This document shows, piece by piece, positions 22,223 to 34,419 of a stretch of DNA of 64,000 bases. The stretch's first letter is position 1, and each line of letters starts with the position of its first letter. This stretch comes from Olleya sp. Bg11-27 (GTDB lineage Bacteria > Bacteroidota > Bacteroidia > Flavobacteriales > Flavobacteriaceae). Made by a program: the position numbers and the translations under genes. Where the stretch lies: NCBI RefSeq assembly GCF_002831645.1, contig NZ_CP025117.1:563514-627513 (forward strand), in the 5' to 3' direction. The notes beneath the pieces are model-generated. The model ran no database searches. It saw only the letters and a list, made by a program, of their open reading frames with translations, and was not told where the DNA came from.

Positions 22223-23134
22223 ATGCTCGACGTTAAAAACCTTACCTTTTCTTATAATAAAACACCTGTTTTAAAAGATATTTATTTCACTGCTAATCAA
22301 GGTGAAAATGTTGCCATTATTGGCGAAAGTGGCTCAGGAAAAAGCACCTTGCTAAATCTTATTTTTGGCGAATCCGACTTAAATCAAGGCCAGATTTTCT
22401 GGAAAGACAACGAAATTTTAGGCCCTAAATACAATTTAGTTGTCGGTTACGAATTCATGAAATACGTCTCTCAAGAATTTGACTTGATGCCTTTTATAAC
22501 CGTTGAAGAAAATATAGGCAAACACCTGTCTAATTTTTTTCCAGAAGAAAAAAAAGAACGCACCGCAGAACTTCTAGAAGTCGTAGAGCTTACAGAGCTT
22601 GCTAAAACCAAAGTAAAAACTTTAAGTGGTGGACAAAAACAACGTGTAGCATTAGCTCGTGCGTTAGCAAAACAGCCCGAAATTATTTTATTGGACGAGC
22701 CTTTTAGTCATATTGACAACTTCCAAAAACAATCGCTTAGACGTAATGTGTTTAGATATTTAAAAGATAAAAACATTACATGTATCGTTGCAACCCACGA
22801 CAGAGAAGATGTTTTAGGTTTTGCAGACAGAATGATTGTTTTATATGACAACAAAATTGTTGTTAATGATAGCCCAGAAAATTTATTCAAAAATCCAGAA
22901 GCACCATTAATAGCTTCGTTTTTTGGTGAGTTTAATATAATTAACGCCTCGATAATTTATGCGCATCAATTAAAAATGGTATCACATTCTGAGCTTAAAG
23001 CGACTGTAATACATTCTTATTTTAAAGGACACTACTACTTAATTGAAGCTTTATTAGATGACGATATTGTGTTTTTTGAAAACAAAATTTTATTAGAAAA
23101 AAATCAAACCGTTTATCTTCAAAAACAACTATAG
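22223..23134 (+). CDS. ABC transporter ATP-binding protein (solo ATPase)
   Basis: Walker A GESGSGKST, signature LSGGQKQRVALARAL and Walker B ILLDEP. Start moved to the ATG after the upstream terminator; the track ORF starts at 22193, inside the hairpin. Confidence 0.8.
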   Translation: MLDVKNLTFSYNKTPVLKDIYFTANQGENVAIIGESGSGKSTLLNLIFGESDLNQGQIFWKDNEILGPKYNLVVGYEFMKYVSQEFDLMPFITVEENIGKHLSNFFPEEKKERTAELLEVVELTELAKTKVKTLSGGQKQRVALARALAKQPEIILLDEPFSHIDNFQKQSLRRNVFRYLKDKNITCIVATHDREDVLGFADRMIVLYDNKIVVNDSPENLFKNPEAPLIASFFGEFNIINASIIYAHQLKMVSHSELKATVIHSYFKGHYYLIEALLDDDIVFFENKILLEKNQTVYLQKQL

Positions 23135-24850
23135 ATCTTCACGTTCGGCATACTGCAATTCATTAGGTAATTCCACTGAAGAAAACTCCAAATGCAATAC
23201 ACGACGTCTTTTTTGCACCGTTGTTTGAGAAGAGGCATGCAATAATAAAGGTTTTATTAACTGCACACCGCCAGCAGCAACTTCACTGACAAAGGGAATT
23301 GAATTATTAGAAATAAGTTGTATTTCTTCATCATTTAAACGTTTATTGTGTGACCCCGGAATCACTTTTAAAGCCCCATTTTTAATTGTCGTATCATCCA
23401 AATGAATACGCATCGCGAAAGTGTTTTTAGAAATATTTTCAGGTGGACAAACACTAATGACTCCTTTTTTATTAGTCCATGACTTAAACCCCTCAATTTC
23501 TACTTTTTCAGAAACATTTATAGGTACATCTTGATGCCAGCTAACATACCAATTGTCCTTTGGTGATTTATCAAAATAAATAGCTTTAGTTAAAAACACG
23601 TTTTTACTGATTGAGTTAATCAGTTTCTTACAATTCTTATTAAATAAAATATCTTTTAATTCTGGCACCTTTTTTAAGACTTCACGCATTCCAAAAGTCT
23701 GCTCACCATGCGTTTTTATATAAGTATCCAACCTCGCTTTTAGTTTTCTAATATCTCTTTTTGAATACACGTGATTTAAAATTCCAAAACCTTTATACTC
23801 TAATCGTTTTGCAACGGTACGTAGATTCTTATCATTAATTTCTGTCTCGTAAGCATCCACAGCATCATACAAACGTTCTTTTATATTTCGCTTTAAACGT
23901 TCTGGAGCAATTACTTTTACGCCTTCGCCTAGACCTAAAATTTCTTTTTCGAGCTCAAAATTTAGCTGCACGTCCAAAGCTATTGTTACACCATAATTAT
24001 CACGACTAACTTCTCTCTGAGAATGATGAAAAGGTTTCGTTAACACATAAGGCGCGTGTCTATGATTAACGTACAGCAACACAGCATCAGGGTCTAAATG
24101 TGGACTTACAGAAACCCCAATAACATCCTTATAATATGTTTCGGAATTAAATGTTGCATCAAAGACAAAACTATTTTCACTTTTATTTAAGGCAAATATC
24201 CGGTCTAAAGCTAAATTCATTACCCCTTCATTTTTGTTTCGTTTACCTATAATAAACCAGCGGTTTCTAAATTCTTTTAGCAAATACGGATGAAACACAA
24301 AGGTGTTTTCTTGTCTAGCCTTAAAGGATTGGTAAGTAATATCTATCGCTTCTTTCTTCAAAATAAACTGATAGAGTTTATCTAAATATTTTAAACCTTT
24401 TAAGTTGTCATTTTTTTCGAAATCTATTAATGACTTCTCATGTGTTTTTTGAGTATACACATGGTCTTCTAGTTTTTGAACCATGCTACCCAATTCATCA
24501 AAATGAGAAAAACCTTGAAACTGTTTTAAAAAAGAAACCGCTTCCGACAACTTAGTTAAATCTTGATTAGAAATCGGACTATTTGTAATACTATACTCTT
24601 CAGTTTCATATTTATAATACTTCCTATTGTAAACTACAATTGGTGCATTATAACCCAATTTGTCGCTACGCATCATTTGCAAGTCCAATTGCACTGTACG
24701 TTTACTAACATCTACATCTTTACCTTCATAGTCATACAAGGCATCAGAAACCGCTTCAATTAAATCATTAAGCGTCCATTGCTTAAAATTGTTTTGAAGG
24801 CATTTATCTATGGTTTTGTAGCGGATTAATGCGTTTTTATTTACTGCCAT
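23129..24850 (-). CDS. WYL-domain transcriptional regulator (HTH-WYL-WCX) fused to C-terminal PhyH-like Fe(II)/2OG dioxygenase domain
   Basis: N-terminal HTH (VSKRTVQLDLQMM). WYL core ITYQSF...FHPYLLKEFRNRWFIIGK...LALDRI. WCX-like segment, then WHQD, ALKVIPGSH and LLLHASSQ facial-triad motifs of phytanoyl-CoA dioxygenase-type oxygenases. Confidence 0.6.
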   Translation of the reverse strand: MAVNKNALIRYKTIDKCLQNNFKQWTLNDLIEAVSDALYDYEGKDVDVSKRTVQLDLQMMRSDKLGYNAPIVVYNRKYYKYETEEYSITNSPISNQDLTKLSEAVSFLKQFQGFSHFDELGSMVQKLEDHVYTQKTHEKSLIDFEKNDNLKGLKYLDKLYQFILKKEAIDITYQSFKARQENTFVFHPYLLKEFRNRWFIIGKRNKNEGVMNLALDRIFALNKSENSFVFDATFNSETYYKDVIGVSVSPHLDPDAVLLYVNHRHAPYVLTKPFHHSQREVSRDNYGVTIALDVQLNFELEKEILGLGEGVKVIAPERLKRNIKERLYDAVDAYETEINDKNLRTVAKRLEYKGFGILNHVYSKRDIRKLKARLDTYIKTHGEQTFGMREVLKKVPELKDILFNKNCKKLINSISKNVFLTKAIYFDKSPKDNWYVSWHQDVPINVSEKVEIEGFKSWTNKKGVISVCPPENISKNTFAMRIHLDDTTIKNGALKVIPGSHNKRLNDEEIQLISNNSIPFVSEVAAGGVQLIKPLLLHASSQTTVQKRRRVLHLEFSSVELPNELQYAEREDL

Positions 24851-24890
24851 TTTCTAAAATATTTCTTGTAATTTATAAGAAAATATCTAG

Positions 24891-24909
24891 TACGCAAAAA
24901 GATTGCGTA
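24891..24909. promoter_or_regulatory. Perfect palindromic operator TACGCAA-aaaga-TTGCGTA in divergent promoter region
   Basis: Exact 7-bp inverted repeat with a 5-bp spacer, between the WYL-regulator start (24850) and the ORF at 24943. Near-identical copies at 30253 and 32920. Confidence 0.55.
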
Positions 24910-24942
24910 TCAAAGCTTATTCTTTGTGTCAAATAATAAACA

Positions 24943-25461
24943 ATGGAAGCTTTAAAATTAAAAATATTCGACGTTTTAACTAAGAAAATAGCTGTTTCAG
25001 AATTTGAAAATTGGCTGTATGATTCAGAAGAAATTATAGAAAACATTGAGTTGAATACAATTTATTTTGATGCAATTTCAATTAACTACAAAGGTAAAAA
25101 CTGGAGTACAGATTTAAATAATATAGCCTTAAATTATTTAGGTGAAACCTATAACGAAATAATAGAAATAAATAAATTATGTTCAGCCATAATTGAGTCT
25201 GAGGCTTTTCCAGAAACTCATAATCTTTTAAGCGATTTACAAAGAAATTTTGATTTTGATAAAGACTACTCTGTATTATGGAAATTATATATTTTGAAAG
25301 ATTATTTTGATTTGGTATCCGAAGGTGTTTGCCAAATAGGCACATTTAAAAAAGAAGCAGACTATTATTCAAAAAAAGCCTTAGAAATAATTCTAAAAAA
25401 TGAAAAAATAAACGAAATCAAAACTAAATTAGAAATAATTTTAGAAGATTTTAAACCATAA
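24943..25461 (+). CDS. Hypothetical protein (first gene downstream of operator)
   Basis: 172 aa, no recognisable motif. Confidence 0.45.
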   Translation: MEALKLKIFDVLTKKIAVSEFENWLYDSEEIIENIELNTIYFDAISINYKGKNWSTDLNNIALNYLGETYNEIIEINKLCSAIIESEAFPETHNLLSDLQRNFDFDKDYSVLWKLYILKDYFDLVSEGVCQIGTFKKEADYYSKKALEIILKNEKINEIKTKLEIILEDFKP

Positions 25462-25737
25462 ATCAAAAATTCCTTGCTTTTTTCAAAAAAATATAATACT
25501 TCGTATTATGCAAGCTGATTTTCAAAAAAAGAAAAATAAATTTTGTAAAGTCGAAAAATAATCTAAATATTTGCACTCAGGAAATAGCAATTCCAAACAA
25601 ATACTAAAAATCAATTATTAACAAAACACGAAGCTATGTATATATTCATATCAAATCAAAATCGTCCAAAAGGTATTCTGCCTTTTATGATGCTTCGTGA
25701 GTATTTTAGTTAATACAACTTTTCAAATTATAAATGA

Positions 25738-25778
25738 AAAACCCGAAGCAATTTAAAAACTGTTTCGGGTTTTTTATT
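25738..25778 (+). terminator. Rho-independent terminator (possibly ending a small transcript)
   Basis: aacccgaa...ttcgggtt hairpin plus T-run, ~280 bp downstream of the previous stop codon. Confidence 0.55.
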
Positions 25779-26153
25779 TCCAGTCCAACCAGTTAACATT
25801 TAATTTTATTACTAAAGAAAATAATGTTTTTTTTCTTTATGTAAAGAAGAAAAATAAAACATAACCTTAGTTATGGTTTCTTTTTATCCTGAAAGAGAAA
25901 GGAAAAAAGGGTGTTTTATAGTGATTAAATTAAGTATTAACTGGTGTAAAGCAAGCCTGCTAAAACATTACCCAAAACAGTAGTAAACACAACCAGAATT
26001 ACATTTTATCCGTAGTCGACGCGTTTCAGAATGTATTTCAAAAAAAACAAATTTAAAAATGAAATACACGTATTCAATTTAAGCACAGATTCCAAATTGG
26101 GAGTAATTACAGGAATCATTTAAAACAGACAAAACCAATAAAAAAAATGTCTA

Positions 26154-26843
26154 ATGAAACCAGTAAACATAAAAACAACGCGACAAAAAGAAGTGCGTCG
26201 TTTACAAAAGAGACAACAGGAAATTTGGAAACTTCAACGAGCGTTAGGTTATACAAAATTAGATAAACCTATACGTCACGGTTGGTACAAGGAAATTGTA
26301 ATGACTAATCGTATAGAAATCTATAGAAATAAGGATTTGATTTTAGAAATCTACGAAAAGCTTGAAAAAGCCTTTTGGGCGAAGACTAAAGAGAAAGCTG
26401 CCTTTAAATGGCAACACCAAACATCAATACATCTTATTTATAAAGATATTCCGACTCTAAGTAAACGGCAATTTAATAAGCTAAGTGATGGCGCAAAACA
26501 GTTATGTATTCCGTTTGAATATTATACGAGAAAACAGAAATTAAGAACTCGATTTTATACTAAAATTCCAAAAGGCTCTTATAAAATTAAATTTACAAGA
26601 GCATACATAACACATAGACAACGTATAGATCCTGAAATAATTAGCGAAACCGATTACATCGCTTCAAAGCTTAATAAAAAAGGATATTATAACATCGCAG
26701 AAGCTTCAAATCCTTGGAAAGATGACTGGAATGACTCTAGTTACAAACAAGAACAATTAAGAACAAAAAGAGGTCTGAATGAGCTAAAAAAATATGCTCT
26801 AGAAGATATCATTAAAGACACCATATTATGGGAAAGAAATTAA
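26154..26843 (+). CDS. Hypothetical highly basic protein, translationally coupled to rtcB
   Basis: 229 aa, Lys/Arg-rich (TRQKEVRRLQKRQQ...). Overlaps the rtcB start by 16 bp. No known domain recognised. Confidence 0.45.
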   Translation: MKPVNIKTTRQKEVRRLQKRQQEIWKLQRALGYTKLDKPIRHGWYKEIVMTNRIEIYRNKDLILEIYEKLEKAFWAKTKEKAAFKWQHQTSIHLIYKDIPTLSKRQFNKLSDGAKQLCIPFEYYTRKQKLRTRFYTKIPKGSYKIKFTRAYITHRQRIDPEIISETDYIASKLNKKGYYNIAEASNPWKDDWNDSSYKQEQLRTKRGLNELKKYALEDIIKDTILWERN

Positions 26844-28219
26844 GCGGAAAAGACTTAATCAAATTAGGCTTTCCAAAAAACAACAGTATTAATGTGACTT
26901 TAGGTCAAATTAATCGCTATCAAAAACGCGTTAAAAAAGAACGGATATTAGAAGACGCAAAAAAAGTATTATTACATCCAGAAAATTATAAAGGCGATGG
27001 CATTTGGGGAAAAATAGCAGAAAGCCTGCTAGACCCAGTAAACGTAACAAAGCAAAAGTTAAACACACATCGTGTGCCATTTCAAATTTATGGAGAGCAT
27101 GAGATTGACGACCAAGCAAAATACCAATTGTACGACGCTTTAAAACTACCTATTGCAGTTGCAGGTGCTTTAATGCCCGATGCCCACGTAGGTTATGGCT
27201 TACCAATTGGTGGTGTTTTAGCAACAAAAAATGCAGTAATTCCTTATGGAGTAGGCGTAGATATTGGATGCAGAATGTGTTTAACTATTTATCCAGTAAA
27301 AGCTTCTTATTTAAAAGGTAAAAAACATCAATTGGAGACTATTTTGTCTGAACACACAAAGTTTGGAATGTATGAAACACATAAAACTAAGCATGATGAT
27401 CCTATTTTTGAGCGTGACGAATTTAAAATCATTCCGTTAGTAAAACGCTTAAAAGACAAAGCCTTTAAGCAATTAGGAACCTCTGGTGGAGGGAATCATT
27501 TTGTAGAATTTGGAGAGGTAAGCATTACAGATATTAATAACGAATGGGATTTACCATTAGGAGAATACCTAGGTGTTTTATCGCATAGTGGCTCACGTGG
27601 TTTAGGCGCGAACATCGCTAAACACTATACATATTTAGCAACAAAGCAATGTCCGTTACCAAAACACGTACAACATTTAGCATGGCTAGATTTAAATACA
27701 CACGACGGACAAGAATACTGGTTAGCTATGAATTTAGCTGGAGATTATGCACAAGCATGCCATGACAACATTCATAAGCGAATAGCCAAATTATTGGGAG
27801 AAAGACCGCTTGCTAAAATAGCCAATCATCACAATTTTGCTTGGAAAGAAAATGTGAACGGAGAAGACTGTATAGTCCACAGAAAAGGAGCAACACCAGC
27901 TAAAAAGGGAGCGCTAGGTATTATTCCAGGATCTATGACGGCACCAGGGTTTATAGTACGCGGCCTAGGAAATAAAGACAGCTTACAATCGGCATCGCAC
28001 GGTGCGGGCAGACTATTATCTAGACGACAATGTAAAATGACATTAACACAAAGTGCCGTAAAAAAAGAATTACAAAAACACGACGTCTCTTTAATTGGCG
28101 GTGGTATTGACGAAGCTCCAATGGCTTATAAAAACATTGAAAGCGTCATGCAAAACCAATTAGAACTAGTGGAAGTCGTTGGCAAGTTTACGCCTAAAAT
28201 TGTAAGAATGGCAAGGTAA
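26828..28219 (+). CDS. rtcB: RtcB-family RNA 3'-phosphate ligase (paralog 1) with ~90-aa N-terminal extension
   Basis: Motifs MPDAHVGYG, GGVLA, GGNHF, SHSGSRGLG, ANHHNFAW and HRKGATPA. Confidence 0.9.
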   Translation: MGKKLSGKDLIKLGFPKNNSINVTLGQINRYQKRVKKERILEDAKKVLLHPENYKGDGIWGKIAESLLDPVNVTKQKLNTHRVPFQIYGEHEIDDQAKYQLYDALKLPIAVAGALMPDAHVGYGLPIGGVLATKNAVIPYGVGVDIGCRMCLTIYPVKASYLKGKKHQLETILSEHTKFGMYETHKTKHDDPIFERDEFKIIPLVKRLKDKAFKQLGTSGGGNHFVEFGEVSITDINNEWDLPLGEYLGVLSHSGSRGLGANIAKHYTYLATKQCPLPKHVQHLAWLDLNTHDGQEYWLAMNLAGDYAQACHDNIHKRIAKLLGERPLAKIANHHNFAWKENVNGEDCIVHRKGATPAKKGALGIIPGSMTAPGFIVRGLGNKDSLQSASHGAGRLLSRRQCKMTLTQSAVKKELQKHDVSLIGGGIDEAPMAYKNIESVMQNQLELVEVVGKFTPKIVRMAR

Positions 28220-28286
28220 TAAACGTTAGGCGTTACCTAAAAAGGTCGGGCTCTCGGCAGTCGCTCTCTTCGAGGAGCTTCAACAA

Positions 28287-28877
28287 ATGCCTCCATCCCT
28301 AACGCAAAAAAAACAGAAAACAATGGAACAAAATCATAACATAAAAAGATACGGAGAACAATGGCCAAGCTATAGAATAAATCAAGGTTTGGACATTTTA
28401 AATAAATTAAAAACATGGGTTGTAATTTCTGGAGGTTGGGCATGGCATTTTATGTCACCAGAAGATCATACAGAATATAAACATGCACACGACCATAAGG
28501 ATATAGACATTTTTGTAAACCCTAAAAATGTGGCAGAAGTAATGGTAATATTAACTAAAGACGGTTTTGAAAAAGTCTGGACAAGATACGACCACATGCC
28601 AAGTAATGAAAACTTTAGACGCTACGAGAAATTAGATTGGTTAGATAATGGGAAGCAAGTAAGAGTGACAATAGATTTTTTCGAATCTAGTACTGTTGAA
28701 ACTACTAAAGTAAACGGTTGGAATTTAGTAGAACCTAAAACCTTATTAAGTTATTACTCCAACATTCATTCTAGTGATAAATGCTGGGCAGTAAAAGCAG
28801 CACTGCAATTAATTGAAAAAGGAAAAAGCCCCATAGGCAGTGCTTTATTATCTAAAAATCCTTTAGAAAAAGTATAG
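28287..28877 (+). CDS. Lnu/ANT(2'')-like nucleotidyltransferase-fold protein (start may be Met at 28323)
   Basis: VISGGWAWHF...HKDIDIFV matches the hG[GS]...DhD minimal NTase signature. It resembles lincosamide nucleotidyltransferase LnuA (LDGGWGVDVL...HRDIDIDF). Confidence 0.5.
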   Translation: MPPSLTQKKQKTMEQNHNIKRYGEQWPSYRINQGLDILNKLKTWVVISGGWAWHFMSPEDHTEYKHAHDHKDIDIFVNPKNVAEVMVILTKDGFEKVWTRYDHMPSNENFRRYEKLDWLDNGKQVRVTIDFFESSTVETTKVNGWNLVEPKTLLSYYSNIHSSDKCWAVKAALQLIEKGKSPIGSALLSKNPLEKV

Positions 28878-28993
28878 TAAAAATATTAGGGTGTTCCTCT
28901 AAAAAGAAACGGACAAGCATGCGCTTTGGTATGACTTAGCGCATCCGTTTTAAGCTACAGAAATAACTTAATAATTAGAAAACAATATTAAAA

Positions 28994-29689
28994 ATGAAAA
29001 CTAAAATAATACAAATAACCTCAGGTCGAGGACCATCAGAATGCTGTTGGGTTGTGGCTCAAGTTCTAAAACATTTTTTAGAAGCTATAAAGCAAAATGG
29101 TATTGATTATAAAATATTACAAAGAGAAAAAGGCATTGAAAACATGACATTACAATCTGTCACTGTTCAATTAAAAGCAAAAACTCTAAATCAATTTTTA
29201 AGTCAATGGATTGGCACAATACAGTGGGTAGGTGTTTCAAAGTTCAGACCACAACACAAACGCAAAAATTGGTTTGTTGCTTTAAATGAAATAGAACAGA
29301 AACAACACTTTGAAATTAATGAAAACGATATTTCATATCAAGCCACAAGAAGTTCTGGACCTGGAGGACAACATGTAAACAAAGTAAGTTCGGCTATTAG
29401 AGCTATTCACGAACCAACTAAAACACAAGTATTAGTCATGGACAGTCGCTCGCAACATCAAAACAAAAAAATTGCTAAAACACGTTTACAAGAAAAAGTT
29501 ACAGAAATACAATTGCAAAGACTAAAGTCTAGCATTAAAAATCAATGGGAGAACCACTTAAACATAGAACGTGGTAATCCAATACAAGTTTTTAAAGGAT
29601 TCGATTTTAAAAAAAACACAATTGTAAAAACGTATAAAAAACAAGGTAATACATTAAAAAATGAATTGCGAGAACAATTAAACAACTAA
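28994..29689 (+). CDS. prfH: Peptide chain release factor H
   Basis: Matches E. coli PrfH: SGRGPSECC, GTIQW, RKNWF, RSSGPGGQHVNK (GGQ), SRSQHQNK and IERGNP. The short 231-aa form lacks the codon-recognition domain. Confidence 0.85.
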   Translation: MKTKIIQITSGRGPSECCWVVAQVLKHFLEAIKQNGIDYKILQREKGIENMTLQSVTVQLKAKTLNQFLSQWIGTIQWVGVSKFRPQHKRKNWFVALNEIEQKQHFEINENDISYQATRSSGPGGQHVNKVSSAIRAIHEPTKTQVLVMDSRSQHQNKKIAKTRLQEKVTEIQLQRLKSSIKNQWENHLNIERGNPIQVFKGFDFKKNTIVKTYKKQGNTLKNELREQLNN

Positions 29690-29693
29690 AACA

Positions 29694-30245
29694 ATGGACA
29701 CAAACTTGTTAAACAACTACGTGCTTAAAGCCATAGATGCTTATCCATATGAGTTAGAAGAAACCGTAGAAAATTTAAATTATGCCTTGTCTTACGAAAG
29801 CAATAACGCTTACGCCTTATACTTAATGGCACGTTTGCAGGCAGAGCAATTTGGAGACTACGAAAAAGCCAAGCACTATTATGCCGAAGCTTTAGCTAAT
29901 AAAATGGATTTTCAGAGAGCATACCCAAAATACATACAAGTATTACTGGATAACGAAGACTTAGATGAAGCCAAAAAACTAATTGATTTTGCCTTAACCA
30001 TAAAAGGCATTGACAAAAGTGCTATTTGGGAGAAACAAGCTCAGATTTTTGAAATAAAACAAGAGTACAAAACCGCAATTAAAACACTAAAGAAAGCAAA
30101 ATTATTTGGATTTAACAATGACTTTATAAGCTATATAGATGCTGAGATTTCAAGAAATAAAAACAAAATGAAATCTAAACAGAAGCCATCCAAAAGTAAA
30201 GCGAAGAAAAAAAAGTGTAGAAAAAAGAAGAAAAAAACAAATTAA
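29694..30245 (+). CDS. TPR-like helical protein with poly-Lys C-terminal tail
   Basis: Starts 5 bp after the prfH stop. Helical repeats (AYALYLMARLQAEQFGDYEKAKHYYAEAL). C-terminus KSKQKPSKSKAKKKKCRKKKKK. Confidence 0.45.
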   Translation: MDTNLLNNYVLKAIDAYPYELEETVENLNYALSYESNNAYALYLMARLQAEQFGDYEKAKHYYAEALANKMDFQRAYPKYIQVLLDNEDLDEAKKLIDFALTIKGIDKSAIWEKQAQIFEIKQEYKTAIKTLKKAKLFGFNNDFISYIDAEISRNKNKMKSKQKPSKSKAKKKKCRKKKKKTN

Positions 30246-30252
30246 ATCAAAC

Positions 30253-30271
30253 TACGCAAAAAGATTGCGCA
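30253..30271. promoter_or_regulatory. Operator copy 2 (TACGCAA-aaaga-TTGCGCA) plus conserved promoter module
   Basis: One mismatch to the palindrome at 24891. Followed by tataatatttgcagtgtaatta, which matches the Bacteroidetes -7 TAnnTTTG element. Upstream of the 30382 ORF and the tRNA-like array. Confidence 0.5.
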
Positions 30272-30381
30272 ATAGACTATAATATTTGCAGTGTAATTAA
30301 AAGGAAGTCTTTTGGAATCAGACTTTAAAAGAAGTTGCTCCACCAGACAAGGACGCTGGTGGAGCTTAATTTAAAAAAGAT

Positions 30382-30675
30382 ATGGAACATTTAAACATTG
30401 ACACATTATTAAAAAAGAACGAAGACTTTTGGAAATCACTTGAAATACACTGCTTAGTTGAATGTTGTGGCATAGATGCTTTTGCTTTTGATAAAAAAAA
30501 CATTCAAAAAGAGAGTATAAACCATGACGTATCAGACATACAAAATAATTTGAAATTAATAATTAAACAAATTGACATCACAGAGTCAAAAAAAATATCC
30601 AGTGACTTATTCAATTTATATGAAAACAAAAAAGTTTTTAAAAATAGAATTAACGAGATTTTAAAAGTTCTTTAA
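30382..30675 (+). CDS. Hypothetical small protein
   Basis: 97 aa. Immediately upstream of the tRNA-like array and downstream of operator copy 2. Confidence 0.35.
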   Translation: MEHLNIDTLLKKNEDFWKSLEIHCLVECCGIDAFAFDKKNIQKESINHDVSDIQNNLKLIIKQIDITESKKISSDLFNLYENKKVFKNRINEILKVL

Positions 30676-30687
30676 AATATTAAAATT

Positions 30688-30772
30688 GGAAGTATTGAGC
30701 AATTGGTTGGCTCGCGAGACTATAACTCTCGTTTCTTAATTGAACATGTAGGTTCGAGTCCTACTACTTCCA
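30688..30772 (+). tRNA. tRNA-like gene, type-II (long variable arm) cloverleaf with non-canonical anticodon loop CUAUAAC (anticodon AUA)
   Basis: Acceptor ggaagta/tacttcc with G1-C72 and A73. D-arm gagc-aattggttg-gctc. Anticodon stem cgaga/tctcg. 16-nt variable arm. T-arm gtagg-ttcgagt-cctac. No encoded CCA. Tyr-like identity elements but A34 instead of G34. Confidence 0.5.
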
Positions 30773-30900
30773 CATCAAGCGTGTCTTGTTACGTGTTTCG
30801 GTATAGCACTATTGTATAAATCCTTGCGGTTTCGCATCAGGTTTTTATATCCAACTTGACTTGAAGGCTTTCGGTTATTTAGCCAAATAAATAATCTCCT

Positions 30901-31046
30901 CTATGTACGCAGGTTCGAATCCTGCCTTCATTAATTTGAAGTAGCTAAGTCCGGTTAAGCAATAGAAACAATCGCAGGTTCGAATCCTGCCAAGATCAAA
31001 ATGATCTTGTGGTCGAGCGGTCAAAGACAATGGACTCACACTCCAT
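30901..31046 (+). ncRNA. Array of tRNA-derived fragments: two T-arm units plus a split 3'-half/5'-half tRNA-like unit
   Basis: T-arm gcagg-ttcgaat-cctgc at 30909-30925 and 30974-30990. The second is followed by caagatc-aaaat-gatcttg, an acceptor 3' strand directly joined to a complementary acceptor 5' strand. Then comes a type-II-like D-arm gtc-gagcggtcaaa-gac and an anticodon-like hairpin atgga-ctcacac-tccat. No downstream T-arm. Confidence 0.4.
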
Positions 31047-31450
31047 TATTTCACGAAGAAGGTCACTTATAAAAATCGACCACTAAGTGTGTCTCACTTA
31101 AAAAGGCAAAAAACAAAGTAAAGGCGAACTCGCTAAAACAATTTGTTGTTGCAGCAGTCCGGAAAATACCTTGAAATACAAATGTATTTTTAGATGCCTT
31201 AGGTATTCTTTTAAAGACTCATTAGTTAAAATACAGTTTGAAAATCATTCAAATTACAATTAATTAATCTTCAATAAAACGCTACCTAAATCGCTTCAAA
31301 TCAATTGTCTTTCCGTAGTTAAAAGGATGGTTTGCTTTTGCTTTGTTTTAATAGAGAATAGCCATTTCAGCTTGACTGAAATTCTATTATAAATGATTAA
31401 TAGTTCTGAAATAAAAAACAAAAACAACAGAACATTAAAAACAAAATAAG

Positions 31451-32551
31451 ATGAAAAGAGTAAGAATTCATGCAGGAAAAGTCGGTTTAGTATTTAAAAA
31501 CGGTGATTACAAACGCGTCATCACGCAAGGATCACATTGGCTAACGTTTAATGAGCATGTAATAGATTATAGCTTAAACCTCGCCTTTAATACACCAACA
31601 GCATTGGAGGTTTTACTTAAAGATCAAACATTAGCAGCGATGTTACACGTAATCAATGTAGAAGACAATCAAATGGTATTAATGTATAGCAATAGCAACT
31701 TTAAAAACGTATTAACAGCAGGACGACATACCTTTTGGAAAGACTTAATCCACTATAAATTTACCACTGTAGATTTAAACGATATTATTATTCCAGAAAC
31801 AATAAACAAAGCCTTATACACCAACACTGTTTTACGTCCATACATCCGTACGTTTGAGGTTGCTGCACATGAAAAAGCAGTTTTAATTATTGATGATACA
31901 TTTGATAAAATTTTAGATCATGGCACATACCATTACTGGAGAAATAATCAAACTATTAAAATTGCGAAAGCAGATTTACGTCAATTACAATTAGAAGTTG
32001 GAGGTCAAGAGTTATTAACCAAAGACAAAGCCACAGTGCGCATTAATTTTTACGCACAATACAAAGTTACAGATATCGAAACTGCTTTATTGCGTAACAA
32101 AGATTACGAAAAACAATTGTACACCAACTTGCAATTAGCATTAAGGTCTTTTATTGGAGTCTACACTTTAGACGAGTTGTTAGACCAAAAAGACAACATT
32201 GCAAAAGCAGTAGTAGAAGATGTACAAACACAAGCACAAAAGTTAGGTGTAACCGTTTTACATGCAGGTTTAAGAGATGTGATTTTACCAGGAGACATGA
32301 AAGAAATCATGAATCAAGTATTAATCGCTCAGAAAAAAGCGCAAGCCAATGTAGTAACAAGACGAGAAGAAACCGCGTCTACACGTAGCTTGTTGAACAC
32401 TGCAAAATTAATGGAAGACAACAGCATGTTGTTTAAATTAAAAGAGATGGAATATGTAGAGAAAATTGCTGAAAAAATTGGCGAAATTACAGTGGCTGGA
32501 AACGGTAACGTAATCGAGCAATTAAAAGATATTTTTTCTGTAAATAAGTAA
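31451..32551 (+). CDS. SPFH/band-7 (stomatin/prohibitin/flotillin) domain protein
   Basis: SPFH-like core (QELLTKDKATVRINFYAQYKVTD...LRDVILPGDM...IAQKKAQANV) with a C-terminal coiled-coil. Length 366 aa. Confidence 0.75.
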   Translation: MKRVRIHAGKVGLVFKNGDYKRVITQGSHWLTFNEHVIDYSLNLAFNTPTALEVLLKDQTLAAMLHVINVEDNQMVLMYSNSNFKNVLTAGRHTFWKDLIHYKFTTVDLNDIIIPETINKALYTNTVLRPYIRTFEVAAHEKAVLIIDDTFDKILDHGTYHYWRNNQTIKIAKADLRQLQLEVGGQELLTKDKATVRINFYAQYKVTDIETALLRNKDYEKQLYTNLQLALRSFIGVYTLDELLDQKDNIAKAVVEDVQTQAQKLGVTVLHAGLRDVILPGDMKEIMNQVLIAQKKAQANVVTRREETASTRSLLNTAKLMEDNSMLFKLKEMEYVEKIAEKIGEITVAGNGNVIEQLKDIFSVNK

Positions 32552-32823
32552 GGTTATGGCGTATTCCAAACAAAAAAATTGGGTCACGCTTTCCGTTATA
32601 CCTTTTTAAAACGTCATTGCGAGCACAAAAGACGTGGCAATCTACTAAATCACAACTCTTAACAAAGTTAGGTTTTAGGTGGTTTAAAAAGGATGCCGCA
32701 TCAAATGCTTTGCATTCACGACTTCTTATTTAAGAAAATAAGAATGAACAAGTAATCGCTTACGCAGAACATGTTTATTGTGAATAGTCATCATTCTTGA
32801 CGTGTTTAAAAATTATACTAGTT

Positions 32824-32908
32824 GTTACTCCTGCAAGGTTTCCAAAACCTTGTAGGTTTAATAAACATAAAACCACACCTACAAGGTTTTAGAAATCTTG
32901 CAGGACAA
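32824..32908. repeat. Extended imperfect inverted repeat (long interrupted hairpin)
   Basis: tcctgcaagg-tttccaaaa-ccttgtagg ...22 nt... cctacaagg-ttttagaaat-cttgcagga. Both stem segments are exactly complementary. Confidence 0.45.
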
Positions 32909-32919
32909 TTAAACTTAAC

Positions 32920-32938
32920 TACGCAAAAAGATCGCGTA
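32920..32938. promoter_or_regulatory. Operator copy 3 (TACGCAA-aaaga-TCGCGTA) plus conserved promoter module upstream of rtcB paralog 2
   Basis: One mismatch to the palindrome. Flanked by the same ~55-bp module as copy 2 (aactacgcaaaaagat...tatcatatttgtagtgtaatta). Confidence 0.5.
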
Positions 32939-32967
32939 ACACACTATCATATTTGTAGTGTAATTAG

Positions 32968-34419
<1,452 letters not shown>

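Follow-up and report, generated by a model that had tools for sequence, protein, structure and literature searches.

Which protein reads a 19-bp palindrome that recurs beside genes for RNA repair, and does its binding switch those genes on or off? The question is raised by a 64,000-nucleotide stretch of Olleya sp. Bg11-27 (Bacteroidota; Flavobacteriaceae; contig NZ_CP025117.1, positions 563,514 to 627,513), referred to here at its full length as the window. The palindrome (the operator) occurs there three times, each time ahead of a predicted transcription unit, and one copy lies in the divergent region beside the gene of a WYL-domain protein (the regulator). Comparison of related loci points to the regulator as the binding protein and favours an activating role. 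The operator copies, the -7 boxes of the promoters beside them and the genes concerned are as follows.

24891-24909, no strand: operator copy 1, TACGCAAAAAGATTGCGTA, the perfect palindrome TACGCAA-AAAGA-TTGCGTA, in the divergent region between the regulator gene and open reading frame (ORF) 172
30253-30271, no strand: operator copy 2, TACGCAAAAAGATTGCGCA, ending in TTGCGCA, one mismatch, 8 nt past the stop codon of the gene for a tetratricopeptide repeat (TPR) protein
32920-32938, no strand: operator copy 3, TACGCAAAAAGATCGCGTA, containing GATCGCGTA, one mismatch, ahead of RtcB2
24919-24926, plus strand: ATtcTTTG, -7-like box of the ORF172 promoter, 4/6 specified positions of TAnnTTTG, predicted start at about 24931 (A)
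30281-30288, plus strand: AAtaTTTG, -7 box of the copy-2 promoter, 5/6 specified positions of TAnnTTTG, predicted start at about 30293 (G)
32948-32955, plus strand: CAtaTTTG, -7 box of the copy-3 promoter, 5/6 specified positions of TAnnTTTG, predicted start at about 32960 (G)
23129-24850, minus strand (ATG at 24850): regulator gene, 573 aa, with winged helix-turn-helix (wHTH), helical linker, WYL, WCX and PhyH parts in that order (Pfam, AlphaFold, Foldseek)
24943-25461, plus strand (ATG at 24943): ORF172, target of copy 1, no Pfam family
30293-32551, plus strand: predicted copy-2 transcription unit, made up of a structured leader (30293-30381), a DUF6331 ORF, an RNA array and a Band-7/SPFH gene
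33016-34419, plus strand: RtcB2 (RtcB paralog 2), 467 aa, target of copy 3, Pfam RtcB 1e-38

Operator copies in the window

A preliminary description of this DNA had located the three copies and called the first an exact palindrome. All three lie where it put them and the letters of copy 1 bear out the symmetry. The search pattern that it proposed, TTGCG[CT]A, finds copies 1 and 2 only and misses copy 3, which reads TCGCG instead of TTGCG. Beyond the three copies the 19-mer has no match at up to three mismatches on either strand of the 64-kb window. Dinucleotide-preserving shuffles contained a mean of 0.05 matches, and none of them reached the three found in the real window. The half-site by itself occurs at background frequency (12 times, with 9 expected), which places the signal in the dyad.

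All three copies share the same 5-nt spacer, AAAGA. In each case exactly 13 nt separate the end of the operator from the start of a TTTG (at 24923, 30285 and 32952), always on the plus strand. The TAnnTTTG boxes named in the preliminary description are thus present as far as their TTTG goes, and are imperfect over their full length (5/6, 5/6 and 4/6). The duplicated module of about 55 bp that it placed around copies 2 and 3 is likewise real and somewhat longer, a direct repeat of 60 nt at 85% identity (30240-30299 and 32907-32966). The initial transcribed sequence GTAATTA is common to the predicted copy-2 and copy-3 promoters, and the predicted leader from the copy-3 start to the RtcB2 ATG measures 56 nt.

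Conservation of the operator around regulator orthologs

Full-length orthologs of the regulator range from 90% identity in Algibacter, the closest, to about 45-60% in Cytophagales, Chitinophagales and Saprospiraceae. The protein is unusually conserved for its kind, with about 60% identity between Flavobacteriia and Cytophagia. Eighty loci carrying an ortholog were compared, one genome per species and with 10-kb flanks each. At two mismatches or fewer the palindrome was present in 57 of the 80 loci, at 102 sites. With the degenerate pattern TRCGCA-N7-TGCGYA, which allows one mismatch and leaves the spacer unconstrained, the 619 kb lying to the divergent side of the regulator gene contained 132 sites, whereas a single one turned up in the 640 kb on its opposite side, and the 130 kb of regulator coding sequence had none. 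The target side therefore carries the operator about 130 times as often as the control side.

In 56 loci, which range from Flavobacteriia to Cytophagia and Saprospiria, a site is found no more than 140 nt from the regulator start codon. The gap between site and start codon is 37-43 nt in 42 of these 56, and 40 nt in the window. The other sites stand directly 5' of RtcB2-type or RtcB1-type genes, or of the Band-7 unit. Equivalents of copy 2 precede the Band-7 unit in loci L001-L016, L022 and L056, while equivalents of copy 3 stand directly 5' of RtcB2-type genes in many loci, the RtcB2 orthologs being 59-89% identical. The 19-mer itself is conserved across the phylum and its flanks diverge. As far as such footprinting can tell, the three palindromes of the window are very probably binding sites of the adjacent WYL-domain regulator.

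Some orthologs lack the C-terminal dioxygenase domain described below (L070-L080) and retain the same operator. In L075 the gene is an ORF of 335 aa, and a 335-aa version without this domain beside the same operator was noted in some genera (Cellulophaga, Maribacter). Because the operator is kept beside such orthologs, its recognition would belong to the HTH-WYL-WCX part of the protein.

The aligned sites also bear on a different explanation, in which the copies would lack operator function, being a repeat element, a hairpin or what is left of a duplicated piece of promoter. Copies 2 and 3 do share their 60-nt module, a stem of 7 bp with a 5-nt loop could form, and other repeats lie nearby (at 32829-32905 an inverted repeat whose arms measure 29 nt, and at about 32616 a sequence resembling a repetitive extragenic palindrome, REP). 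At the symmetric positions 2 and 18, A and C are the most frequent combination (42 of 111 sites), and the two bases could pair in 69 sites where 63.6 would be expected if they were independent; positions 7 and 13 hold A/T and A/C almost equally often (50 and 49 sites). The two half-sites thus vary independently, as expected for protein contacts. A hairpin or terminator reading of the operator was rejected since symmetric positions do not covary and the non-pairing A/C is the commonest pair. No U-tract follows the sites, which lie 5' of the predicted starts and hence outside the target transcripts. The 19-mer has been kept across the phylum where its flanks have not, and its positions are tied to promoters and RNA-repair genes. 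A plain recent duplication of the module around copies 2 and 3 was also discarded, both positions being conserved across genera. The remnant, repeat or hairpin explanation is largely refuted, and we regard it as barely credible.

Orientation, phasing and promoter geometry

In the 80-genome set the A-rich strand of the spacer points to the downstream gene in 126 of the 132 sites, the commonest spacers being AAAAGAC, AAAAGAT and AAAACAT. A TTTG begins exactly 13 nt downstream in 111 of the 132 and at 14 nt in another eight. The Flavobacterium sigma-A box TAnnTTTG spans -12 to -5 (PMC9723704); on that numbering the operator occupies -40 to -22 and its proximal half-site, TGCGYA, -27 to -22. The position over which -35 elements lie in other bacteria is thus covered at a fixed distance from the -10 equivalent. 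This is so for the three sites of the window, for 111 of the 132 in genomes and, among the matches listed from a motif-only metagenome scan with TRCGCAAAAASAYTGCGYA, for 85 of 122; the scan returned at least 122 sites on at least 120 stretches.

In Flavobacterium promoters the optimum spacer between the -33 element and the -7 box is about 19 nt. At that spacing the TTG of a -33 element would fall at -34 to -32, and these positions are A in 95-99% of 208 aligned sites, most of which come from the spacer-fixed metagenome pattern. They are also A in the 14 commonest spacers of the spacer-unbiased 80-genome set, which account for 105 of its 132 sites. The target promoters accordingly have no recognisable -35 (here -33) element, with AAA in place of TTG. 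The TTG within the proximal half-site was considered as a -33 element and rejected, being 6 nt too near the -7 box with its spacer of 13 nt. A purine occupies the predicted +1 in 88% of the 208 aligned sites, and phased A and T tracts extend 5' of the operator from -42 to about -75.

The regulator's own promoter appears to be built in another way. Its candidate -7-like box, predicted from sequence, and the motif upstream of it are:

24868-24875, minus strand: TAaaTTac, candidate -7-like box of the regulator's own promoter
24895-24898, minus strand: TTTG formed by the operator T-tract and the half-site G, 19 nt upstream of that box

On the regulator strand of 45 loci a T(A)nnTTT motif recurs at +16 to +22 relative to the operator, and 96% of these loci have T at +20. 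This suggests that the regulator is transcribed from a canonical sigma-A type promoter whose -33 element is buried in the operator, an arrangement that would lead to autorepression.

The regulator protein

Pfam places WYL (8.1e-11) and WCX (3.3e-6) domains in the regulator, both above their cut-offs, together with PhyH (8e-11), and the WYL models of PADLOC match it at 5e-21. No NCBIfam model names the protein, and a single-sequence search of the PDB with it gave no significant match. In an AlphaFold (AF2) model based on a 20-sequence alignment (mean predicted local distance difference test, pLDDT, 75), helices at residues 5-61 and a hairpin at 71-81 form a wHTH, beta domains at 169-223 and 255-315 correspond to WYL and WCX, and a double-stranded beta-helix domain is present. 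When the model was compared with the PDB by Foldseek, the first rank was held by DriD in complex with single-stranded DNA (ssDNA) and its DNA site (8tp8, E 9e-13). The DriD-RNA polymerase activation complexes 9pfq and 9pfv came next, then PafBC on RNA polymerase (9fnd), and then Fe(II)/2-oxoglutarate (Fe/2OG) oxygenases, which matched the C-terminal part. Pfam, PADLOC, the AF2 model and Foldseek agree in assigning the protein to the HTH-WYL-WCX transcription factors, with an N-terminal wHTH followed by WYL and WCX.

Residues Y173, S175, R179, L190, K192, R197 and W198 of the WYL domain are invariant in 20 orthologs. The profile alignment to DriD spans regulator residues 214-330 only, and the ligand residues of DriD lie outside it. 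A PhyH-type Fe(II)/2-oxoglutarate dioxygenase domain makes up the C-terminal part (residues 340-573). This domain is probably active, because its facial triad (H439, D441, H538) and R549/R550 are likewise invariant in 20 orthologs.

Activation or repression

Several WYL-family regulators act on sites of comparable layout. DriD sites are hexamer-N7-hexamer palindromes starting with TACG (ATACGACAGTAACTGTCGTAT; didA TACGAC-CGTTTCT-GTCGCA), and in all DriD targets the site overlaps the -35 position, with the same spacing to the -10 element throughout and no -35 element present (PMC13004042). DriD binds asymmetrically and contacts the beta subunit and one alpha C-terminal domain; the operon divergent from driD is activated through a site that lies between the two, and DriD has been suggested to regulate itself negatively (PMC13004042; PMC9186387). 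The -26 element that PafBC recognises occupies -28 to -23 in promoters that have no -35 (PMC8635444). SiwR activates from a 19-bp imperfect palindrome in a divergent region (PMC10693628).

The regulator resembles DriD, which acts in Caulobacter crescentus in an SOS-independent response to DNA damage, in its domain order and in being its best structural match. The hexamer-N7-hexamer layout is shared as well (TACGCA-AAAAGAT-TGCGTA here), as are the location of the site over the -35 position at a fixed -10 distance and the presence of a site between the regulator gene and a divergent target. It differs from DriD in having RNA-repair genes rather than DNA-damage genes as targets, a putative RNA ligand instead of ssDNA, and an extra Fe/2OG dioxygenase domain of 240 aa. 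It also acts at a Bacteroidota -7 promoter with a spacer that is A-rich toward the target, and the two proteins share only about 15% identity. PafBC of mycobacteria, which works by sigma adaptation, is also a WYL activator and the second-best structural match (9fnd). Its hybrid promoters lack a -35 and hold their element at -28 to -23 at a fixed -10 distance, which compares with -27 to -22 for the proximal half-site here. PafBC differs from the regulator with its full dyad: as a heterodimer or fusion it uses one HTH to read a non-palindromic element and the second to contact sigma, and its regulon comprises more than 150 DNA-damage genes. SiwR of Mycobacterium smegmatis is a homodimeric WYL factor that activates from a 19-bp imperfect palindrome between its own gene and its target operon, in dependence on the -26 region. 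It is distinguished by DinB-like targets, an ssDNA ligand, its actinobacterial host, the lack of a dioxygenase fusion and the single operon known for it. The geometry of the DriD, PafBC and SiwR sites matches that of the sites described here, and ligand-dependent activation is favoured for this reason.

On this model the 19-bp palindrome would be the DNA site of a dimer of the HTH-WYL-WCX-dioxygenase protein. From its 5' end the composite promoter would run through an upstream tract rich in A and T, then the operator (about -40 to -22), then nine bases to the -7 box, a -33 element being absent. Once its WYL domain has bound a nucleic-acid ligand, the regulator would occupy the place where sigma region 4 would otherwise need a -33 element and would recruit RNA polymerase. 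By analogy with RtcR and the RNA-binding WYL1, the ligand is most plausibly an RNA fragment arising from RNA damage. In the window the regulator would thereby switch on ORF172, the unit of DUF6331, tRNA-like RNAs and Band-7, and RtcB2. At copy 1 the same bound dimer would cover the opposite-strand TTTG that lies 19 nt from the regulator's -7-like box, and through covering it the regulator would probably repress itself.

The same protein at the same sites could instead be a repressor of the CapW/BrxR kind, which would block -40 to -22 of active promoters, leave upon ligand binding and so de-repress the RNA-repair genes and its own gene. CapW and BrxR likewise belong to the HTH-WYL(-WCX) family, are encoded beside the genes they control and use palindromic operators in promoters. 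The operator of copy 1 covers core promoter DNA on both strands, and Bacteroidota promoters can work with a weak or absent -33 element. CapW and BrxR repress anti-phage defence systems, whereas none of nine neighbouring proteins in the window matches a PADLOC defence model. The strict phasing (13 nt in 111 of 132 sites) and the fixed orientation (126 of 132) before unrelated genes are features that an occluding repressor needs neither of, and such phasing relative to the -7 box, which points to activation, is exactly what the activators DriD and PafBC display. AAA stands in for the TTG of the -33 element, and the closest structures are those of DriD and PafBC, CapW and BrxR not being named in the first 50 Foldseek hits. 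These arguments are not decisive; we consider repression an unlikely alternative that is still to be taken seriously.

Several observations weigh against the activator model or soften the evidence for it. WYL-family repressors with promoter-overlapping operators do exist, CapW and BrxR among them (PMC10693628). Sequence similarity of the regulator to DriD and PafBC is marginal (profile E 0.003-0.014, about 15% identity), and the helical linker at residues 91-150 of its model is of low confidence. The regulator-side -7-like box is degenerate, with G at its last position in just 24% of loci. Spacer conservation in the metagenome set was built into the search pattern, only the 80-genome set being spacer-unbiased, and the site counts cover ortholog-locus flanks and metagenome stretches rather than whole genomes. 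In Bacteroidota promoters the -33 element is less conserved than the -7 box, which makes a missing -33 weaker evidence than a missing -35 would be in Proteobacteria. With these points taken into account, we still favour the regulator as an activator on composite promoters. We hold it to be probable, if with some reserve, that the palindrome is the site at which a DriD-like activator governs an RNA-repair regulon and likely represses its own gene. The supplements of the Flavobacterium psychrophilum start-site atlas hold no RtcB, WYL or motif entries.

A probable dispersed RNA-repair regulon

Among the matches listed from the metagenome scan, to which the following counts and gene names refer, 99 of 122 sites have a TTTG box at 13 +/- 1 nt. 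Of these boxed sites, 62 have a divergent WYL gene, a downstream RtcB or Band-7 gene, or both. None of the 23 unboxed sites has a WYL, RtcB or Band-7 neighbour, and these look like chance matches. Where a boxed site has none of these neighbours, the downstream genes include ones for Ro60 (TROVE 5e-30 with vWA_Ro60), Hen1 (Hen1_L 4e-111) and RlaP (6e-49), and further for a T4-type RNA ligase (2e-19), a PIF1-like helicase and an extracytoplasmic function (ECF) sigma factor. At several Ro60 sites the flank of 7-10 kb contains no WYL gene. Ro60 follows the regulator-proximal site in L019, L021, L026, L079 and other loci, and the same order is seen in Cytophagales genomes.

Since the genes for Ro60, Hen1, RlaP and RNA ligase have this module of operator and box in front of them, the operator marks a dispersed RNA-repair regulon, and in other Bacteroidota the regulator would also switch on these genes. 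The preliminary description had proposed a small regulon in which the WYL regulator controls its own gene and its target promoters. Phylogenetic footprinting strongly supports control by the regulator through the operator; confinement to this type of locus does not hold, other Bacteroidota genes carrying the same module.

These matches also supply what can be said for binding by some other protein, for example a different transcription factor or an alternative sigma factor, with the proximity of the WYL gene being coincidental. An ECF sigma gene lies behind some sites, others are more than 7 kb from any WYL gene, and binding by the WYL protein is itself deduced from sequence. Against this stand the 37-43 nt gap to the WYL start, kept by 42 of 56 loci that range from Flavobacteriia to Cytophagia and Saprospiria, and the ratio of 132 sites on the divergent side of the WYL gene to one on the other. 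The dyad fits a dimeric wHTH and the layout resembles that of the DriD site; the downstream -7 box is of the housekeeping sigma-A type and no sigma-54 promoter lies near the targets. Binding by a protein other than the regulator is accordingly rated improbable.

A protein of about 750-790 aa is encoded behind the same operator, with a tRNA-like sequence before it, in L093, L100, L104, L105, L155 and L157. It has a conserved CGHxIP...RYNGCPFCGTPFE motif and a weak Prok-RING_4 match below the cut-off, and is a candidate for an unannotated member of the regulon.

Relation to RtcR systems and to earlier work

A comparison for the gene content is offered by the RtcR/sigma-54 system (rtcBA and rsr-yrlBA-rtcBA of E. 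coli and Salmonella), in which RtcB, Ro60 and Y-RNA-like or tRNA-like RNAs are likewise under an adjacent dedicated sensor-regulator and the signal is damaged tRNA (PMC7790460). The window holds two RtcB paralogs, a tRNA-like array and a weak YrlA match; it has no Ro60, which in other Bacteroidota stands behind the same operator. The mode of control differs, RtcR being a CARF-AAA+ enhancer-binding protein on sigma-54 promoters and the regulator a WYL factor on sigma-A-type promoters. No Sigma54_activat or CARF domain occurs in the proteins of 22-37.5 kb of the window. A sigma-54 promoter as in rtcBA was sought near the targets and rejected: matches to the consensus are at chance level (30 against 23.8) and none falls in the three control regions.

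A broader proposal is that Bacteroidota possess a one-sensor, phylum-wide response to RNA damage. In it a DriD-like WYL factor, usually fused to an apparently active Fe(II)/2-oxoglutarate dioxygenase, would sense damaged RNA rather than ssDNA and activate a dispersed regulon of -33-less promoters (RtcB, Ro60 with Y/tRNA-like RNAs, Hen1, RlaP, RNA ligase, Band-7). We advance this tentatively, as it could well be right and could slightly more easily be wrong. If true, it would parallel, for RNA, the DNA-damage responses of PafBC and DriD, and would stand in for RtcR/sigma-54 without homology to it.

WYL factors with a dyad operator are a known kind of regulator, and what sets the present case apart is its RNA-repair regulon, its fused dioxygenase and its Bacteroidota type of promoter. 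A literature search found no paper linking a WYL regulator to RtcB or RNA repair in Bacteroidota, or describing the operator; Burroughs and Aravind 2016 lay outside that search. Their article reportedly surveys RNA-repair operons and may mention associated regulators, and the gene association may already have been noticed earlier. To our knowledge, the switching of RNA repair is understood only for RtcR, in a few Proteobacteria, and we know of WYL-domain ligands for just a few DNA-damage regulators. The precise cis-element and promoter design described here connect a single family of regulators with RtcB, Ro60, Hen1 and related genes throughout a major phylum, gut and marine members included. 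They make the regulon predictable in any Bacteroidota genome from the motif and a TTTG at 13 nt. They further allow one to ask whether activation of the DriD/PafBC type works with the unusual Bacteroidota sigma-A, and offer a way to find the RNA-damage signal and to learn what a dioxygenase does as part of a transcription factor.

Gene context of the window

The remaining features between the regulator gene and RtcB2 are these.

25462-26153: non-coding DNA of about 690 nt
26154-30245, plus strand: ORF229, RtcB1, a nucleotidyltransferase-like ORF, PrfH (TIGR03072, 218 bits, above cut-off) and the TPR protein
30382-30675, plus strand: DUF6331 ORF (Pfam)
30688-31065, plus strand: tRNA-like/Y-RNA-like array
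31451-32551, plus strand: Band-7/SPFH gene (Pfam)

The window contains no gene for Ro60 or Hen1. Distant homologs of ORF172 sit before Hen1 and behind the same operator in other Bacteroidota (O200, tblastn against the window, E 2e-5).

In the copy-2 unit, the transcript leader (30293-30381) is predicted to form two hairpins (-26 kcal/mol, z = -3.6), and its first 82 nt are 80-91% identical between genera; nucleotide conservation of the unit in other genera is 71-96%. The RNA array includes a tRNA-Tyr-like sequence (anticodon ATA, 52 bits) and two weak tRNA-like matches. The match to the Y-RNA-like family YrlA at 30880-30984 is weak (27.9 bits, E 0.01, against a gathering score of 69). A T-arm-like CGCAGGTTCGAATCCTGCC is duplicated within the array, at 30908 and 30973. 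Rfam finds no family at the operators, its only matches being the tRNA and the weak YrlA and tRNA-like ones 3' of copy 2.

A fourth, degenerate operator ahead of ORF229-RtcB1-PrfH was not found at up to three mismatches; this operon has its own canonical promoter and leader in place of an operator. Within the non-coding gap between ORF172 and ORF229, the stretch 25541-25779 is conserved in over 20 Flavobacteriaceae genomes at a nucleotide identity of 73-79%. A canonical promoter of its own (TTTG, 19 nt, TAaaTATTTG), a possible ORF of 24 codons (MYIFISNQNRPKGILPFMMLREYFS), an intrinsic terminator and a hairpin that shows compensatory changes lie within it. The GCTTCG that it contains is invariant and complementary to CGAAGC in the 5' arm of the terminator. 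For that reason the stretch could be an attenuator or leader for the ORF229-RtcB1-PrfH-TPR genes, which carry no WYL operator; the stretch has no match in Rfam. An imperfect inverted repeat with 43-nt arms follows, at 25788-25830 and 25903-25945.

The inverted repeat at 32829-32905, directly 5' of copy 3, has 29-nt arms that are 93% complementary, a 19-nt loop and a small palindrome inside each arm. Its end, CTTGCAGGA, recurs 5' of the equivalent operator in L007 and L056. The repeat could be the terminator of the Band-7 unit or a repeat element. The REP-like sequence of the window, at about 32616, has counterparts elsewhere. In several genomes sequences resembling REPs or miniature inverted-repeat transposable elements (MITEs), GTCATTGCGAGC... 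and TGTCATTCCGCACTTGATG..., are inserted near or just after regulated promoters, and in L013, L015 and L022 they lie immediately past the predicted start.

The TPR protein (29694-30245), whose gene ends shortly before copy 2, has a lysine-rich C-terminal tail, KSKQKPSKSKAKKKKCRKKKKKTN. The A-rich codons of this tail double as the A/T-rich tract 5' of copy 2, and the DNA encoding it may thus serve both coding and promoter roles.

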